Shown one piece after another: positions 6,362-18,480 of a DNA stretch of 20,000 nucleotides (position 1 is its first letter; each line of letters opens with the position of its first letter). The position numbers and the translations under genes were made by a program. The notes beneath the pieces are model-generated. The model was not told the origin of the DNA. It made no database searches and was given only the letters and a program-made list of their open reading frames with translations. The DNA lies in the IMG/VR virus record IMGVR_UViG_3300044622_000297. One strand, 5' to 3'. The stretch comes from an uncultured virus (IMG/VR IMGVR_UViG_3300044622_000297) (lineage: Duplodnaviria; Heunggongvirae; Uroviricota; Caudoviricetes).

Positions 6362-6733
6362 TTACCGCCTCATTTTAGAAATAGCAACTGCTTCCTCGGA
6401 TGAGAACACCGGAACCGCATTGCTCTTGTGCATCTGTCCTATCCCCAGAATTTTATCGCCTGTATAGACAGGACTGTCCTTAGCAGCAGCAACACCGACC
6501 CCGTCGCCCTTGCTTGGGATCTTTGGCGCGTCTGCTCCGCGGTAAGTAGGTTTGAACGAAAGTGGCTTCAATTTGTTTTCCTTCTTAGCTTTGGGTTTAA
6601 CGTCGTACTTTGATAACAGATTTTCCCACCCTTCTTTCAGCTGGGCAGAAGTCCGCGCAGCATCAGCATTACGGAACTTCTTCTTACCTTTCTTTTTGCC
6701 GGTTGTGGTTAACCACGGGCCTTCCATGTGCAC
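6362..6733 (-). CDS. Basic conserved phage hypothetical protein
   Basis: Lys-rich 123-aa ORF with C-terminal YTGDKILGIGQMHKSNAVPVF...ISKMRR, a motif I recall from T4-like phage hypotheticals; tightly packed with its neighbours. Confidence 0.75.
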   Translation of the reverse strand: MHMEGPWLTTTGKKKGKKKFRNADAARTSAQLKEGWENLLSKYDVKPKAKKENKLKPLSFKPTYRGADAPKIPSKGDGVGVAAAKDSPVYTGDKILGIGQMHKSNAVPVFSSEEAVAISKMRR

Positions 6734-6735
6734 GG

Positions 6736-7149
6736 TTACTTTGCTTTCTTAGCCAGTTCAGCTTCCATCTCGGCAACACCGTTCTGTAATACTGCTGCCA
6801 TGTTTAAAGTTTGCTGTTTAGTAAGCAAAGTGTAAGATTCAACCTCGACGTACCCTTTAGTGATAGCAATCCAACAAATTTTAGCAGTAGTGACCCAACG
6901 GTTAGCAGTTTCTTTCAACCACATAACAAACCAGGACTCGTCGTAAGTAATCGGAAAAGTTTCGCGCCACCAGGCAGTTTTTACCTTAGCCGAGATGTGA
7001 CAGGTAATTATAGAATCGTCAGGCTCGTCAATCTCGATCATAATATCAACTTCAGCATCGCACCCACACTCACACGGGACGCGCCACCAACGCCAGTTCT
7101 TGTATTCCTTAAGTGCCATAATGCCTTCTGCCGGTTTTTGTGCTTCCAT
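6736..7149 (-). CDS. Hypothetical protein with C-x-C-x-C motif
   Basis: 137-aa ORF; TAATG coupling with the upstream gene; PCECGC. Confidence 0.7.
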   Translation of the reverse strand: MEAQKPAEGIMALKEYKNWRWWRVPCECGCDAEVDIMIEIDEPDDSIITCHISAKVKTAWWRETFPITYDESWFVMWLKETANRWVTTAKICWIAITKGYVEVESYTLLTKQQTLNMAAVLQNGVAEMEAELAKKAK

Positions 7150-9370: not shown

Positions 9371-9709
9371 TTAGTGCTTCTTCTTTAACAGGTAAAATTC
9401 TTTCGCTTTAAGCAGCAAGTCTTTCATCCCTTCGTCGGTCGCTGCCATCCGGTTCATTTCTACAAACTGCGTGGGAGTGATCAAGTCTCCGTCATATGGA
9501 ATGCCCATATTAGAACCTCGTATCATCAATGCCATTTTAGCTTTAGTTAGATCGTCGGTCAAGCATTCTTTAAACCACGTGAAATCTCGCTCTCTCCAGG
9601 AAATAGGACTGGAGCCAAATTCCAGAAAGTCATATTTCTTAAATAGCCAGAAGCCACGAGTTCTGCGAACTGCGTATACGCTGTCGATTACTACCAGCTC
9701 AACTTTCAT
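9371..9709 (-). CDS. Hypothetical protein
   Basis: 112-aa ORF; ATGA overlap with the upstream gene. Confidence 0.7.
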   Translation of the reverse strand: MKVELVVIDSVYAVRRTRGFWLFKKYDFLEFGSSPISWRERDFTWFKECLTDDLTKAKMALMIRGSNMGIPYDGDLITPTQFVEMNRMAATDEGMKDLLLKAKEFYLLKKKH

Positions 9710-9954
9710 TCTTTCACTCCGAAATGCTTACGCAATGCTTCAAGGTAGTTATCGGTGCCCATAACTTTATTACCGTTGTCAATGGCCGAATAAACGTTAG
9801 CGCATTCAATCACAATAAGCTCAGCGAACTGTTCGACCGCTGCGTCAAACTCGATAACGTCGTCGTCGTTAAGTTGATGACAGAACGCCCTGTACCGGTC
9901 ATACAGCTCGGCTAAGTCAGTTTTTACTGCTAGGTCAATCACTCGTTGGTTCAT
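9706..9954 (-). CDS. Small phage protein of the MNxRIxxLA...FAELIVxEC...HFGV family
   Basis: ATGA overlaps at both ends; paralogue at 11937-12164. Confidence 0.75.
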   Translation of the reverse strand: MNQRVIDLAVKTDLAELYDRYRAFCHQLNDDDVIEFDAAVEQFAELIVIECANVYSAIDNGNKVMGTDNYLEALRKHFGVKE

Positions 9955-10544
9955 TCTTCTACTCCTTGTTCAATCCAGTGACAGTTAAACAGCCAGCGCA
10001 CTTCATCAACCTTAGTCTGAGTCGAGCACGACTTTGCGATTGCACCCTTTACTAACTCGTAGGTGTTTTCCTTCTGATCAAACATCTTGTACAGGAAACG
10101 CTGATACTTTTCTTCCTGCTTCTGTACAAACTCAACCGCGTAGATCTTACGGTCAACATCGAGCTTTGCTTTTGCAGCAGCAATACGCAGATCAATTAAG
10201 GTCAGCGAAGTATCACGAACACCGTTCCAGAACTTGTTTTCAAATTCCTCAAAACGTGCCAAGTCCTTAGCGTCCAGGAAAGTACGCACGTCGTCGGCCT
10301 GCTCGTTAGCGATGATCTCGATCACGTTCTTTTCGCGGCCGATCATGTCCTTGGCCTTGTGCTTGATCATATAGTCTTCGCTTTTACACTTTACGCGATG
10401 GCCAGAATCCCATGCAACAACAAATCCCTCTTCGCCTATTAGGCCACGCACAAAGGAAATGAACTCCTGTGGATCTGCCACAGAGTTATGCGATTTAACT
10501 GTAGGAATGTTAAACTCGCGAATCTTATCTTGAAGTATTGTCAT
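9951..10544 (-). CDS. RNA ligase (T4 Rnl1/RnlA-like), C-terminal half
   Basis: Nucleotidyltransferase motif IV (EGFVV) and motif V (RVKCKS..Y...H) followed by a helical C-terminal domain; has its own promoter. Confidence 0.85.
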   Translation of the reverse strand: MTILQDKIREFNIPTVKSHNSVADPQEFISFVRGLIGEEGFVVAWDSGHRVKCKSEDYMIKHKAKDMIGREKNVIEIIANEQADDVRTFLDAKDLARFEEFENKFWNGVRDTSLTLIDLRIAAAKAKLDVDRKIYAVEFVQKQEEKYQRFLYKMFDQKENTYELVKGAIAKSCSTQTKVDEVRWLFNCHWIEQGVEE

Positions 10545-10553
10545 AGTGTTACT

Positions 10554-10582
10554 ATTATACTACCAAAAAGAATAAATGTCAA
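10554..10582 (-). promoter_or_regulatory. Perfect sigma70 promoter TTGACA-N17-TATAAT driving the ligase C-half
   Basis: TTGACA 10577-10582, TATAAT 10554-10559, ATG 9 nt downstream, no SD. Confidence 0.9.
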
Positions 10583-10596
10583 GAAATATTTTATAG

Positions 10597-10658
10597 GATA
10601 AATAATAGTGCGGGCCGCGATACTTGTAATATCCGCCCGCTCTAGACGAACCAGGAGG
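10597..10658 (+). promoter_or_regulatory. Late promoter GATAAATA, structured 5' leader and SD of the homing endonuclease
   Basis: GATAAATA 10597-10604; stem gcgggc (10610-10615)/gcccgc (10635-10640) with inner gata/tatc; AGGAGG 10653-10658. Confidence 0.65.
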
Positions 10659-10663
10659 CTCAT

Positions 10664-11401
10664 ATGTCCAGCAACGATATTTATCAGCTGTATTACACAT
10701 ACCAACTAATTGATCCACGATCAAACTTACCATTTTACATTGGCTTCGCAAAAGATCCGCTGCGACCATATGATCATTTAGCGCAGTGTAAGAATTGGTT
10801 AGCAGGTAAGAAAGTTCCTCATCCAAACTATATCAAAATGGCCAAAATAAGAGACATTCTTAGTGAGGGTTACGAGTTCAAATTTGAAATTATTTACAAA
10901 AGTTACGATCCAAATCAAGCATACGACAAAGAAACTGAGTTAATAACAAAGTATGGAAGACAAGACTTAAAGACAGGATTCTTATCTAATATGAATGCTG
11001 GAGGCCGCGGCTGTCTAAATCCAAGTGACGAAGTAAGAAAGAAAATAAGTGACGGAAACTGCGGCACATTAGTTGAACGATGGGGCAAGGAACGAGCAGA
11101 GAAACAACTGGCGTTTCTTCGCAAACAACCCAAAGAAGTGATGGCAGAGCGCGGAATGAGAGGCGCTAAACACATCATTGACAACGGTTGGTCCAAAGAA
11201 ACATTATCTAAAAGAAGTAAGTCAAGATTGCTAAACACGGTTAAACGCATCCAAAACCATTATCACCAGCCATACACCGAAGAGTTACGCATACAAGCAA
11301 GAAAAGACAAGGTTGCCTTTGTTGATAAGACAGCCTTGTCTAATTATGTCACAGAGGAAGATATTCGCCAGTTATCATATGACGGCAAGCCAACAGAGTA
11401 A
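10664..11401 (+). mobile_element. Free-standing GIY-YIG (LEM-3-like) homing endonuclease gene, antisense to its neighbours
   Basis: YYTYQLIDPRSNLPFYIG...R...H, catalytic-type E in AYDKETELI, LSNMNAGGRG, then NUMOD3-like SDEVRKKIS; SD AGGAGG; the only plus-strand gene in this long minus-strand block. Confidence 0.85.
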
Positions 11402-11936
11402 GCATGGGCTTATCGTAGTGAATCACAATCCGGTTATCAGGCGCTGTGTATTCAAATACCGGAGTGATTCCGTTTTCAATACACCAAGTCGAAAACGCCA
11501 GATACTCTGGATGAGCAGCAATAAACGGTTCCGCTTGAAGCGCAACATCAGTTAGTCCCATCTTCGTCCCAAAGCGAACCTTACCTTCAACCATAAATGG
11601 TGACAGAAAAGAACCGTCAAGCTTGGTATAAACAGTATGCGGCTCAGAGAAATCAACATTCGCTAACTGCGTTTCTTCTTTCTCCATCAAGTTGAAAAAT
11701 TTATGAAGAGGGCGACGAAGAATCTCACCAGTAGAAGAGCGGAAGATCATGCCGCGCAGTTCGCGCAGGATAGCGTGAGCTTCGTTTTCAACAGGAGGAA
11801 AGGTATCCGCCATCTGTACCACGTAGTTGATGACTGTGTAATCACCGTCCTTTACCGCGACAATGAACTCAGGCTTATCCGCAATCAGCGGCAATACCTG
11901 CGAAATGTTTGTGATCAACGGAAATTCATACTTCAT
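11349..11936 (-). CDS. RNA ligase (T4 Rnl1/RnlA-like), N-terminal half with the catalytic lysine
   Basis: ELRGMIF, RPLHKFFN, motif I TKLDGS, TPVFEYTAPDNRIV, LTLLACRHMITGEY; stops (TGA) before motif IV. Confidence 0.9.
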   Translation of the reverse strand: MKYEFPLITNISQVLPLIADKPEFIVAVKDGDYTVINYVVQMADTFPPVENEAHAILRELRGMIFRSSTGEILRRPLHKFFNLMEKEETQLANVDFSEPHTVYTKLDGSFLSPFMVEGKVRFGTKMGLTDVALQAEPFIAAHPEYLAFSTWCIENGITPVFEYTAPDNRIVIHYDKPMLTLLACRHMITGEYLPL

Positions 11937-12164
11937 TTACTTTACTCCAAAGTGGTCTTTTATGTTTTTATCTACCCAGGCCAGCGTTCGTCCGACCTCG
12001 GTTCCTTCGTGCGGTGAAGGATTAGTGTACATCAAACATTCTTTCACAATCAGCTCTGCGAACTTTTCTGCGAACACACCCAATGATCCTTTACCGGACT
12101 CGTCGGCATGCTCGCTTGCGTATTGAAATGCTTCTGCTGCTAATGTGTCGATTCGATCGTTCAT
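11937..12164 (-). CDS. Small phage protein of the MNxRIxxLA...FAELIVxEC...HFGV family
   Basis: Paralogue of 9706-9954; its TAA directly abuts the ligase ATG. Confidence 0.75.
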   Translation of the reverse strand: MNDRIDTLAAEAFQYASEHADESGKGSLGVFAEKFAELIVKECLMYTNPSPHEGTEVGRTLAWVDKNIKDHFGVK

Positions 12165-12367
12165 TTTAATCCTTTCTTTCTTCGTTCGGCCTGTAATCTC
12201 AGTGTTTCTGCTGTTTGTGCTTGATTAAATTTTTGTTGTGCGTCTGCCCAGGCGTCTATCGCTTTCTCATAATCAGGACCGTCGGACGGACTGATTTTCT
12301 TTACTGCTTTATAAGCCAAGACAACTTCTTTGTAGGCTGCTGCTACCGCAGGATCTTCGAATTTCAT
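12161..12367 (-). CDS. Hypothetical helical protein
   Basis: 68 aa; SD TAAGG; ATGA overlap with the downstream gene. Confidence 0.65.
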   Translation of the reverse strand: MKFEDPAVAAAYKEVVLAYKAVKKISPSDGPDYEKAIDAWADAQQKFNQAQTAETLRLQAERRKKGLK

Positions 12368-12538: not shown

Positions 12539-12955
12539 TTAGCTCGCCTTACAGCCAAGTGCCTTCAATGCGTTGACGAATTCTCTGCGGTTAGCCTTGT
12601 TCATCACAGGAAGTTTCTCAACGTGTAACGAGGTCGCTCCGGTGACCCACCGGCAACGATCGCAGGCGTCTTTTGCGTCCTTCAGACCGTAGCCCGTGTA
12701 TTGACGCACAGTTTTAATCACTTCAACATACATTGGCACATTTGCGTCAATCAGTCGCACATCGCCGAGATGCGTCCCGGTCATCATAGTAAAGAAAACC
12801 GCGCCCTTGAAATCCTGACCGACAGTGGTGGCAATCGTGCCCCACATTTCCATGCCGGCTTCGGGCCCCCAGAGCTCAGTAATTGTCCGCATGAAGTCTG
12901 TTCCGGACACAATCAGATCTTCTTGCTGCTCAGATGTTAGTGTATTGTAGTCCAA
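12539..12955 (-). CDS. Protein containing a ribosomal protein bL12 (L7/L12) C-terminal-like domain, TTG start
   Basis: VEVIKTVRQYTGYGLKDAKDACD matches the bL12 CTD motif VIKAVRxxTGLGLKEAKDLVE; the N-terminal ~60 aa are unrelated; SD GGAG 7 nt upstream. Confidence 0.8.
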   Translation of the reverse strand: MDYNTLTSEQQEDLIVSGTDFMRTITELWGPEAGMEMWGTIATTVGQDFKGAVFFTMMTGTHLGDVRLIDANVPMYVEVIKTVRQYTGYGLKDAKDACDRCRWVTGATSLHVEKLPVMNKANRREFVNALKALGCKAS

Positions 12956-15718: not shown

Positions 15719-16002
15719 GTTTCTTGCCTTCCTTTAAATTTTAAGAAAAGTGCTGTTAAAAGAGGATCGTCTGACGGAAGATGAATCGTTATATACCGAG
15801 ACCCAGTTGACTCTTGTACAAAGTCTCTTACGTCTTTATGAAACAATTTTACCAGCGTCTTTTCGTTACAGACCGCGAATACAAAATCTGCGCCCTGGGA
15901 CGGATCGTCTAGTGCTGCCATTCTAATCCTTATGTGAGAAAGGTACTCGCTCAATGAGCAGTTTTCCCATGTACGTAGATTTATCTTACGCTTCCGCGAC
16001 AT
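15715..16002 (-). CDS. Hypothetical protein, distant LKW-like terminus
   Basis: DPLLTALFLKFK near the C-terminus. Confidence 0.6.
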   Translation of the reverse strand: MSRKRKINLRTWENCSLSEYLSHIRIRMAALDDPSQGADFVFAVCNEKTLVKLFHKDVRDFVQESTGSRYITIHLPSDDPLLTALFLKFKGRQET

Positions 16003-16444
16003 ATTCTTCGGTAGGTGTTACGATGATAATCTTGCTAAAGCCCTCAAGTCGCGTAGGGCGAACGTATTCCTTGCCGAGGTCCTTAGTAACAGCAGCAGGG
16101 ATCTCGAATGCCACAGCCACTACATCGTAGCCAGCAGCGATTAGCAGATCAATCTTTGGCCTACGAGTCGTTAGCGTTAAGTTAGCCCGATCCCATATCA
16201 AATGCCGATACATGTCGATCATGCTCTTAACTCGATCGTTGAACCAATGGCTGGCTGCGTCGATGTTTGCCCTGATTACGTCGCCAAAGGTTTTCTCTTC
16301 TGCCTTTATTTCGCTCTCAACAAGAGCGTCGGGCGCAAGGTGTACAAACTTCTTCTGTAAAAGATAAGGAGCAGACCAGCTTAGCTGGGCTGTACACGGA
16401 ATGCCTACTAACAGGTAGGCAACTGGTTTAATGGTAGTATCCAT
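15986..16444 (-). CDS. AAA_33/polynucleotide-kinase-like protein with degenerate P-loop (start revised to 16444)
   Basis: AYLLVGIP(CTAQL)SW, HLAPD, LIWDRANLT...R, PTRLEGFSKI. Confidence 0.7.
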   Translation of the reverse strand: MDTTIKPVAYLLVGIPCTAQLSWSAPYLLQKKFVHLAPDALVESEIKAEEKTFGDVIRANIDAASHWFNDRVKSMIDMYRHLIWDRANLTLTTRRPKIDLLIAAGYDVVAVAFEIPAAVTKDLGKEYVRPTRLEGFSKIIIVTPTEEYVAEA

Positions 16445-16450
16445 ACTAAC

Positions 16451-16479
16451 ACTATACACTCTTTCGAGGAGTGTGTCAA
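16451..16479 (-). promoter_or_regulatory. sigma70-type promoter TTGACA-N17-TATAGT giving a leaderless mRNA
   Basis: GGTTGACA 16474-16481; -10 at 16451-16456; ATG 6 nt downstream. Confidence 0.8.
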
Positions 16480-17607: not shown

Positions 17608-18444
17608 TTACAGGATGAAATGCGCGTCTGGATTCCAGCCAGTCATTTCGGTACCGTAGCTGCTTTGGTAGCCACGTGGGTTACACAGAACGCGGGTGTA
17701 ATCGCCAACCATGTAATCCATAACCGAATGTACGTGCCCGTGGATCCAATACTTGATGCGCGGGTTGTCTAGAATGAAATCATCCAACCGGCTGTGGTAG
17801 CCACCGTTCATCAGGAACTGGTCTCTATACCTGTTATCAACGCTCTGTCCAGTTGGCGCGTGGTGCGTAATCATAACCACCGTCTTGTCGATGTTGTGCG
17901 GGTTGTCCAGAATAATCTTGAAGTACTGGAGCGAGCGAACATGCTCGTTAATCGCATCGTGCGGCGTAAAACGAACATACTCGGTTGGCGTCCGAATCTT
18001 CTTAATCACCTCGAAGTCGTTCATACCGTGCTTAACGGCATGCACGGTAAGCGGATCACCACGGTTCATATCGGTCCAAAGTGTAGCACCGACGAACAGC
18101 ACGTTGTCCAGTTCGAAGCAATCATTTTCCATGATGCGGAAATTGTCCGGCAGCTCCTTGCGCATACGAGCATGGGTCTTTTCAAACGCCATGCGGTAAT
18201 GCTCGTGGTTGCCAGCAATCATAAGGACATGCTGATACTTCTTCTCGCACTCCTCAATGAAGAATTGGTTGATCCGGCCCTTGTTGCTGATCTTAATTCC
18301 GGTGCCGTGCTGATCGGGCTCGTACTTCTTCATCTCCTTTGCTTCGCAAGTATCGCCTGCAAGGATAAGAATGTCGCCGCCAGGCAGCGTTGGGTTAGTC
18401 TTCCCAACGTCCAAATGTAGATCTGAGCAATAATTGATTTTCAT
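17608..18444 (-). CDS. Calcineurin-like metallophosphoesterase (start revised to 18444)
   Basis: SDLHL, LAGD, AGNHEHY, GATLWTD, THHAP, WIHGHVH, NPRGY. Confidence 0.92.
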   Translation of the reverse strand: MKINYCSDLHLDVGKTNPTLPGGDILILAGDTCEAKEMKKYEPDQHGTGIKISNKGRINQFFIEECEKKYQHVLMIAGNHEHYRMAFEKTHARMRKELPDNFRIMENDCFELDNVLFVGATLWTDMNRGDPLTVHAVKHGMNDFEVIKKIRTPTEYVRFTPHDAINEHVRSLQYFKIILDNPHNIDKTVVMITHHAPTGQSVDNRYRDQFLMNGGYHSRLDDFILDNPRIKYWIHGHVHSVMDYMVGDYTRVLCNPRGYQSSYGTEMTGWNPDAHFIL

Positions 18445-18451
18445 AGCCTTA

Positions 18452-18480
18452 ATTATACTATCTTTTTTGGTTTTTGTCAA
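18452..18480 (-). promoter_or_regulatory. Perfect sigma70 promoter TTGACA-N17-TATAAT giving a leaderless mRNA
   Basis: TTGACA 18475-18480, TATAAT 18452-18457, ATG 7 nt downstream. Confidence 0.9.

Follow-up and report, generated by a model that had tools for sequence, protein, structure and literature searches.

The locus and its two ligase halves

The stretch of DNA described here (the window) comprises 20,000 nucleotides (nt) of an uncultured virus of the Caudoviricetes and corresponds to bases 54912-74911 of the 155,045-base IMG/VR record IMGVR_UViG_3300044622_000297, which is 44% complete by estimate and whose genes lie almost all on the minus strand. Within the window an rnlA gene, for an RNA ligase of the T4 Rnl1 type, is present as two separate open reading frames (ORFs), an N-half and a C-half, with a cassette between them that carries a putative GIY-YIG homing endonuclease gene on the opposite strand (Table 1). 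The original prediction for this DNA, made before any database search, had divided the Rnl1 motifs between two such ORFs, and the ORFs, their coordinates and their motifs were all found as claimed.

The N-half matched the Pfam family PF09511 (RNA_lig_T4_1) above its cut-off (E 1.8e-20, profile positions 2-151 of 227), while residues 65-165 of the C-half matched PF20819 (T4_Rnl1_C) with 31.4 bits against a cut-off of 27 (E 2.7e-7), so that the helical C-terminal domain specific to Rnl1 is present in the C-half. In the PHROG database both halves fell on phrog_562 (377 positions, named RNA ligase and tail fibre attachment catalyst), the N-half covering positions 30-194 and the C-half positions 208-363, and in Synechococcus phage B23 both matched one frame of a single gene, 34 bases apart. 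Because of this order in phrog_562 and the single-frame matches in B23, the halves are two colinear pieces of one Rnl1. An Rnl1 is a single polypeptide; here there are two ORFs, 804 base pairs (bp) apart, with an antisense gene between them. Intact homologues of 370-420 amino acids (aa) are the norm, both among most of the best 150 of 4039 N-half relatives and in 59 of the 60 loci where both halves could be placed, all 59 of which lack the cassette and read through the junction without a stop. The single locus with the layout of the window, L003, has a homologous cassette.

Near-identical DNA was not found in cultured phages, and the best protein relatives there were 49% identical to the N-half (Caulobacter phage Cr30) and 36% identical to the C-half (Synechococcus phage B23). 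The locus was nearly complete (at least 0.85 of sampled words) in 11 lake or freshwater DNA runs from 2020-2025, 7 of which are possibly the source of this DNA.

Table 1. Coordinates of the split rnlA locus and of the perfect promoter matches (window positions unless stated otherwise)
Feature	Position	Strand	Description
rnlA N-half	11349..11936	-	195 aa; stop TGA at 11349-11351; YTKLDGSF and FEYTAPDNRIVIHY present
rnlA N-half, residues			R61, K79, motif I K105-L-D107-G108, motif III/IIIa E162 (FEYTAP); N-terminal nucleotidyltransferase part
rnlA C-half	9951..10544	-	197 aa; motif IV E39-G40 (EEGFVV), motif V K52 and K54 (VKCKS), helical T4_Rnl1_C domain
Inserted cassette	10545..11348		804 bp from N-half stop to C-half ATG
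Putative GIY-YIG-type free-standing homing endonuclease gene	10664..11401	+	245 aa; antisense to rnlA
Overlap of endonuclease 3' end and N-half	11349..11401		53 bp; antisense to native N-half codons for ...CRHMITGEYLPL and the stop
Sigma-70-type consensus promoter of the C-half	10554..10582	-	TTGACA-N17-TATAAT, 12/12 match
GC-rich hairpin (GCGGGC...GCCCGC), then U-rich stretch	10606..10644	-	-25.7 kcal/mol
Perfect promoters	window 10554-10582 and 18452-18480; record positions 144337, 105316 and 79310	-

The inserted cassette

The position of the antisense gene between the halves, with its 53-bp overlap, was borne out, and its likeness to GIY-YIG enzymes is weak. It matched phrog_314, "homing endonuclease", with E 2.4e-12, and its residues 10-108 weakly matched a solved GIY-YIG protein (9u75, E 0.04). 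Segments resembling YTY...FYIG...R...E...N occur in both the window and the L003 copies, and we take them to have the catalytic roles of their counterparts in I-TevI. Relatives in cultured phages were at most 38% identical and matched over the N-terminal domain only. On these likenesses the plus-strand ORF would be a divergent GIY-YIG protein, preceded by a strong AGGAGG (10653-10658) 5 nt ahead of its ATG. The 53-bp overlap adjoins the conserved TGEY codons of the N-half, which are the likely homing site, and over the final 60 nt of this half the window and L003 share 92% identity. Elsewhere in the record there were weak further endonuclease matches at 6551-6778 (E 3e-4), 94727-95017 (E 6e-4) and 146461-146907 (E 0.04), and the phage may carry other homing endonuclease genes.

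The C-half was predicted to have a perfect promoter of its own, and it does. The ATG of the C-half begins 9 nt past the -10 hexamer, so its mRNA should be leaderless or nearly so. Perfect matches numbered 2 in the 20-kb window against 0.00 expected from 200 shuffles, and the whole record has 5 perfect matches to TTGACA-N16-18-TATAAT, all on the gene strand, as are all 11 sites that have a 17-nt spacer and score 11/12 or better. For four of the five perfect promoters an ATG opening an ORF of 178-346 aa stands 6-9 nt past the -10; one of these leaderless-type ORFs is a metallophosphoesterase gene (17608-18444), whose family alignment starts at residue 1. From this pattern the phage seems to use consensus promoters that yield leaderless mRNAs, and the C-half fits the pattern. 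A 9/12 promoter-like site on the plus strand (10530-10558) overlaps the C-half promoter back-to-back.

The hairpin of Table 1 precedes the C-half promoter on the strand that is sense for rnlA; on the other strand it falls inside the 5' untranslated region of the endonuclease gene. Its z score was -2.7 for the minus strand against -0.7 for the plus strand, and one of its pairs is changed on both sides in L003; it may act as a terminator or insulator.

The break point and the catalytic residues

At the junction the N-half reads ...TGEYLPL and stops, and the C-half opens with MTILQDKIREFNIPTV. The N-half aligned to residues 53-191 of T4 Rnl1 (PDB 2c5u) and the C-half, in a weak match (E 0.02), to residues 215-325, its motifs IV and V falling on EGYVA and the FKIKS region of 2c5u. 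The cut thus corresponds to about residues 193-205 of T4 Rnl1, past the conserved TGEY and motif IIIa and ahead of motif IV (the motif names being those that we take to apply from T4 Rnl1). In alignments of the N-half with 64 relatives (A3, 65 rows) and of the C-half with 65 relatives (A4, 66 rows), the invariant columns include R61, K79, K105, D107, G108 and E162 of the N-half and E39, G40, K52 and K54 of the C-half. As read from these alignments the catalytic set is complete and is shared out over two chains.

Among intact relatives the stretch from TGEY to the IPVV strand differs in both sequence and length. The N-half terminates 3 residues past TGEY and the C-half begins 11 residues ahead of NIPTV, giving a total linker of 14 residues in the window against about 13 in intact relatives; the broken ends (LPL plus MTILQDKIREF) exceed the intact stretch by only 1-3 residues. 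Alignment of the halves to intact homologues, proposed with the original prediction, gave colinear coverage, on which phrog_562, B23 and the intact relatives agree.

No intron and no intein at the junction

If the halves were rejoined by splicing, through a group I or II intron holding an antisense endonuclease gene or through the pieces of a split intein, two cistrons could still yield one polypeptide. Phage GIY-YIG endonucleases are often intron-encoded, and fractured genes having split inteins together with a free-standing endonuclease are known (PMC2677866). A permissive Rfam scan of 9700-12200, with E values up to 10, found no intron family and no group I or II ribozyme core, the unrelated sub-threshold matches being Thr_leader (21 bits, gathering threshold 55) and DUF805b (15 bits, gathering threshold 36). 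There is also no room for intein parts of roughly 100 and 35 aa, because the broken ends are only 1-3 residues longer in total than the intact stretch, and a split intein was rejected on this ground. A stop of its own closes the N-half, and the C-half is served by a separate promoter and start codon ATG.

Contigs from 3 RNA libraries covered both halves and the endonuclease gene at 99% or more. No joined halves were seen in these metatranscriptome contigs (3 libraries of one study, at most 3 samples), and 2 contigs ran unbroken over the boundary of N-half and cassette. In two of the three RNA runs no contig covered the promoter and the start of the C-half (about 10456-10623), a hole that proves nothing, the records being contigs. 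Rejoining by splicing is thus extremely improbable, in agreement with the original prediction, which had called for none.

A second cassette locus and selection on the halves

L003 and the window share the stop after TGEYLPL, an identical promoter and the MTILQDKIREF start, and the block at 10515-10604 is 97% identical between them, the highest in the locus. The N-halves are identical at 170 of 195 residues, with a ratio of non-synonymous to synonymous substitution rates (dN/dS, or omega) of 0.066 at a dS of 1.08; the C-halves at 133 of 193 (dN/dS 0.117, at a saturated dS of about 2.2); and the endonucleases at 113 of 220 (dN/dS 0.35, dS 1.20). The L003 endonuclease is an intact ORF of 274 aa with a 51-residue insertion; the C-terminal part shows 70-83% DNA identity between the two copies and the catalytic N-terminal part is barely alignable. 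Since the silent divergence of the endonuclease gene matches that of its flanks, the cassette was present before the two phages diverged.

Judged by these ratios, purifying selection has kept acting on both halves while the gene was split, as had been expected of halves described as showing no decay. Pairs of intact Rnl1 genes (70-97% identical in the N part) gave omegas of 0.03-0.27 for the N part and 0.04-0.31 for the C part. Between the window and L003 the dN of the C-half is 3.6 times that of the N-half, a ratio that is high yet lies within the spread of 0.3-6.0 among intact pairs, and which is uninformative either way on relaxed selection on the C-half; both the omegas and the C/N dN ratio are ordinary among intact pairs. 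Intact pairs often differ markedly in identity between their N and C parts, for example L089/L091 and L018/L019 (93% against 71% and 85% against 57%). The spread of C/N dN ratios suggests that recombination has often occurred between the N and C parts of rnlA, and this unequal divergence would point to break points near the insertion site of the endonuclease.

These data bear on whether the ligase is simply dead, the endonuclease having destroyed rnlA and left two ORFs as remnants before decay. On most hosts T4 can do without Rnl1, the C-half is not preceded by a Shine-Dalgarno sequence, and it has diverged faster than the N-half between the window and L003. Set against this, the dN/dS values of 0.07 and 0.12 were maintained over a dS of at least 1 while the gene was split, with an endonuclease gene equally diverged at a dS of 1.2. 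Every invariant catalytic residue is retained, the block holding the promoter and start is 97% conserved, other split lineages keep dedicated expression signals even where the endonuclease is absent (see below), and the locus is nearly unchanged in the lake-water runs of 2020-2025. We regard a dead ligase as highly unlikely.

Recurrence of the split

We examined 120 fetched loci with an N-half match for a stop near the end of the match. Six of them stop within two residues past it (L003, L074, L075, L076, L077 and L079), L074 and L076 being near-identical. In L074 and L076 the N-half is followed by a 77-aa ORF of no Pfam family (L074:1529-1762), then TTGACA-N17-TAGTAT, a GGA-containing leader and the C-half, and in L077 a 121-aa ORF (L077:4673-5038), also lacking a Pfam match, stands at the break point and is followed by the contig end; these ORFs could be remnants or other mobile genes. 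L075 and L079 have no endonuclease at the junction: in L075 the C-half ATG overlaps the N-half stop, with the GGAG of the TGE codons 9 nt upstream, and in L079 the order is GGAG, stop TGA, one base, ATG. The two-gene state therefore exists, to judge by these layouts, with a GIY-YIG gene, with other inserts or with a translational-coupling junction alone. Both halves are present in every split locus that has downstream DNA, and split forms persist over lineages with 33-69% C-half identity.

Stand-alone halves were also found among proteins from ENA and Logan (P0003, P0004, P0008, P0014, P0017, P0141, P0164 and P0165). Among the best 150 of 4039 N-half relatives were 8 N-only proteins of 201-218 aa, and 5 of the 8 end 3-8 residues past the TG.Y motif; these ends are not contig cuts, because contigs as long as 325 kb carry members of their clusters. 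Four of the 13 C-half relatives start MTI/MSL-(L/F)QDKI, as the window does. Three short C-half-like proteins were not counted as split forms, namely P0011 (which shares a 90% cluster with a 390-aa protein), P0005 (which starts at an internal Met of the longer fragment P0007 and equals its C-terminal part) and P0013, while P0056, P0083, P0163, P0061, P0095 and P0145 were treated as ambiguous, being probably cut at contig ends.

On trees of the N part the split state needs 6 changes, both on a 242-row FastTree tree, from which loci and proteins with an incomplete N part and L102 (internal stop) were left out, and on a 50-row quick IQ-TREE tree, made up of 15 split rows, the six nearest intact rows of each and 14 random intact rows. 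Well-supported branches force at least 2 of these changes on the first tree and at least 4 on the second. A single origin of all split forms was thus not supported, although neighbouring groups, namely window and L003 with P0014 and P0017, may share one. The trees are compatible with one site having been invaded again and again, or with loss and re-fusion. Together with the recurrence of one break point in scattered lineages, the 4 or more forced changes give indirect support to site-specific cleavage and homing by the putative endonuclease.

Nested among L074, L076, L077, L075 and L079 (support 98) lies an intact rnlA, L078:4001-5160. Its linker is unusually long (…GKYLNIHEETQDYYILEMISRYNIPVV) and resembles an N-half tail, spacer and C-half start read through; L078 may be a re-fusion.

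Predicted assembly of the two chains

A co-fold of the two halves, suggested with the original prediction and made with alignments A3 and A4, was confident, with an interaction score from aligned errors (ipSAE) of 0.91 in three runs, the best control giving 0.01. The runs agreed in at least 94% of contacts, with a partner predicted local distance difference test score (pLDDT) of at least 87. The mark used had been passed by 116 of 157 solved complexes and by 2 of 215 mismatched pairs. The tightest predicted contacts join N-half residues 100-105, the strand leading into motif I, to C-half residues 41-45, the motif IV strand, and a further contact is predicted between N-half residues 180-181 and C-half residues 13-16. 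In the model these contacts would rebuild one beta-sheet of a single nucleotidyltransferase fold.

The predicted interface also bears on whether one half alone matters, for instance in a separate tail-fibre attachment role, with no joint ligase. Besides ligation, T4 gp63 has a second function, a non-catalytic one in tail-fibre attachment, which is reflected in the name of phrog_562, and separate promoters could allow the halves different expression times. Purifying selection, though, acts on both halves, the invariant residues are the catalytic ones divided between the chains, and every split locus with downstream DNA has both. The predicted interface is an interior beta-sheet, and in either half by itself this sheet would lie exposed and be unstable. 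A role for a single half is very unlikely.

Interpretation

We interpret the locus as an Rnl1 gene split into two cistrons by a homing-endonuclease cassette, the halves of which reassemble non-covalently into one ligase, and would give this a probability of roughly 78%. The two-chain ligase of the original prediction is thus supported computationally, by colinearity, selection and the co-fold, with association and activity of the chains following as expectations from these.

Several points weigh against this interpretation. The case for it is a computational one. The co-fold could have passed through memory of the solved intact T4 Rnl1 (2c5u, 5tt6 and 9do4), and the calibration counts hold only roughly, own alignments having been used; because of these two circumstances the pass indicates likeness to the T4 Rnl1 fold and not binding of the chains. 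The endonuclease stays below both Pfam cut-offs (PF22945, 24.8 bits against 27; PF01541, 18.4 against 22.6). The C-half has no Shine-Dalgarno sequence, and its leaderless translation is suggested only by the pattern in the genome, an answer by analogy. The hairpin is absent from the minimum-free-energy fold of L003. Saturation of the C-half dS makes the C-half omega approximate, and its dN exceeds that of the N-half as given above. The RNA-library contigs, finally, carry no strand, level or transcript ends, DNA carry-over is possible, and they are weak evidence.

The cassette sits in a variable surface linker just past TGEY, between motifs IIIa and IV, where it provides a stop directly after the native codon L195, a consensus promoter and an ATG. 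In the proposed route the N-half would probably be transcribed along with small upstream genes, ending at the cassette edge, and the GC hairpin with its U-rich tail (10644-10606) may stop or insulate upstream transcripts, while the C-half would be expressed from its own promoter as a leaderless or near-leaderless mRNA. Chains of 195 and 197 aa would then associate non-covalently through beta-strand complementation, in which the N-half strand of motif I pairs with the C-half strand of motif IV and rebuilds one active site, to which the N chain would bring K105 and E162 and the C chain E39, G40, K52 and K54, and which would have ligase activity. Neither RNA nor protein splicing would be involved. 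The endonuclease, read from the opposite strand, would cut uninterrupted rnlA of co-infecting relatives near the TGEY codons, and the cassette would be copied in, together with its adaptor signals, as the break is repaired.

More tentatively, and with slightly less than even odds in our judgement, the insert may be a self-neutralising homing cassette, the adaptor of which (stop, hairpin insulator, consensus promoter for a leaderless mRNA, and start codon) would keep the invaded gene working as two chains, so that the two-chain state would outlive the endonuclease and might re-fuse. If true, homing endonucleases would repeatedly, in nature, cause genes to be split for good inside a catalytic fold, and several stages of such fission would be visible in one enzyme family (L075, L079 and L078).

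Neighbouring genes

Directly next to the split gene lie two small minus-strand ORFs, 9706-9954 downstream of the C-half and 11937-12164 upstream of the N-half. They are paralogues, with 40% identity across 45 residues (E 4e-6), and both end in HFGVK, so that the ligase locus is bracketed by related small genes. Also upstream of the split ligase, within 7 kb and on the same strand, are a small P-loop kinase-like ORF (15986-16459, minus strand; AAA_33, 28.6 bits) and the metallophosphoesterase gene mentioned above (minus strand; PF00149; phrog_1649, E 5e-53). That these two and the ligase form an RNA end-healing and sealing set is offered only as a suggestion. No Rnl2-type ligase (PF09414), which might have made the split gene redundant, was found in the 155-kb record, which is only 44% complete by estimate.

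Two further minus-strand ORFs in the window are of note. In the 138-aa product of 12539-12955, residues 76-100 match the C-terminal domain of ribosomal protein L7/L12 (PF00542, 28.1 bits, cut-off 25.9), which is unusual in a phage. The 104-aa product of 13248-13562 matches the T4 major capsid family over no more than its first 30 or so positions (PF07068 positions 3-32, 31 bits; phrog_138); a full capsid gene of the PF07068 family was not found in the 155-kb record fragment.

Comparison with known systems

The endonuclease gene mobE of Aeromonas phage Aeh1 is co-oriented with its host gene. The downstream half in the window has, unlike that of Aeh1, its own consensus promoter and putative leaderless start. 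The nrdA-a/mobE/nrdA-b arrangement of Aeh1 (Friedrich et al. 2007, as discussed in the review PMC2988022) is alike in that a free-standing homing endonuclease lies inside a conserved enzyme gene and in that two polypeptides come together to form one composite active site, with no splicing of RNA or protein, as we propose here. The host gene is nrdA in Aeh1 and rnlA in the window, and MobE is an HNH endonuclease, whereas that of the window is of putative GIY-YIG type and antisense. The split NrdA of Aeh1 needs element-derived tails for activity and assembly (Crona et al. 2011, PMC3045599), while the window junction adds at most a few residues; activity is demonstrated for Aeh1, whereas the window ligase is known from its sequence and predicted structure.

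Few enzymes split in association with an endonuclease are documented in T4-like phages: those named in a review of their mobile DNA (PMC2988022) are nrdA (Aeh1, mobE), topoisomerase 39/60 (T4, mobA) and DNA polymerase gene 43 (phage 25), and its passages on such splits do not mention RNA ligase. Genes 39/60 of T4, with mobA, and 43A/43B of Aeromonas phage 25 (with a seg-like gene) or 44RR (with intercistronic untranslated sequence) are T4-like enzymes split at one site, and some relatives are described there as keeping the endonuclease and others only a short spacer, which matches the junctions of L075 and L079 (PMC2988022). They are other enzymes, and the window rnlA makes no use of a ribosomal bypass element.

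Phage T5 ligA/ligB (subunits A and B, so named in PMC3632103) is alike in drawing a covalent nucleotidyltransferase-type ligase from two adjacent phage genes; that ligase is NAD-dependent and acts on DNA, and the window ligase is of the ATP-dependent RNA ligase type. Fractured genes (Dassa et al. 2009, PMC2677866) likewise have a homing endonuclease gene between halves in uncultured phage or metagenome DNA, and are joined by protein trans-splicing of split inteins, whereas the window halves lack extra sequence of intein size. Intact T4 Rnl1 (gp63; PDB 2c5u, 5tt6 and 9do4) has the same domains and catalytic motifs in a single chain of 374 aa, which the window divides into two at about T4 residues 193-205.

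The original prediction knew of no split Rnl1, and full-text literature searches, which did not cover subscription-only papers, likewise found no description of one; the arrangement recurs in several uncultured lineages. Rnl1 is a new host gene for a known genes-in-pieces arrangement, that of Aeh1 nrdA/mobE, and its distinctive extras are the antisense endonuclease, the cassette-borne promoter with its putative leaderless start, the cut through the catalytic fold and the series of junction states. To the few split enzymes already documented it adds one in which a covalent nucleotidyltransferase is divided across its core beta-sheet, with motif IIIa on one side of the cut and motif IV on the other. 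Its variants (endonuclease kept, other small insert, or coupling junction alone) make it testable how a mobile element limits the cost of landing in a gene and whether fission persists once the element has gone, and the split rnlA would provide a naturally occurring two-part form of a family of enzymes that is in wide use as a laboratory reagent.

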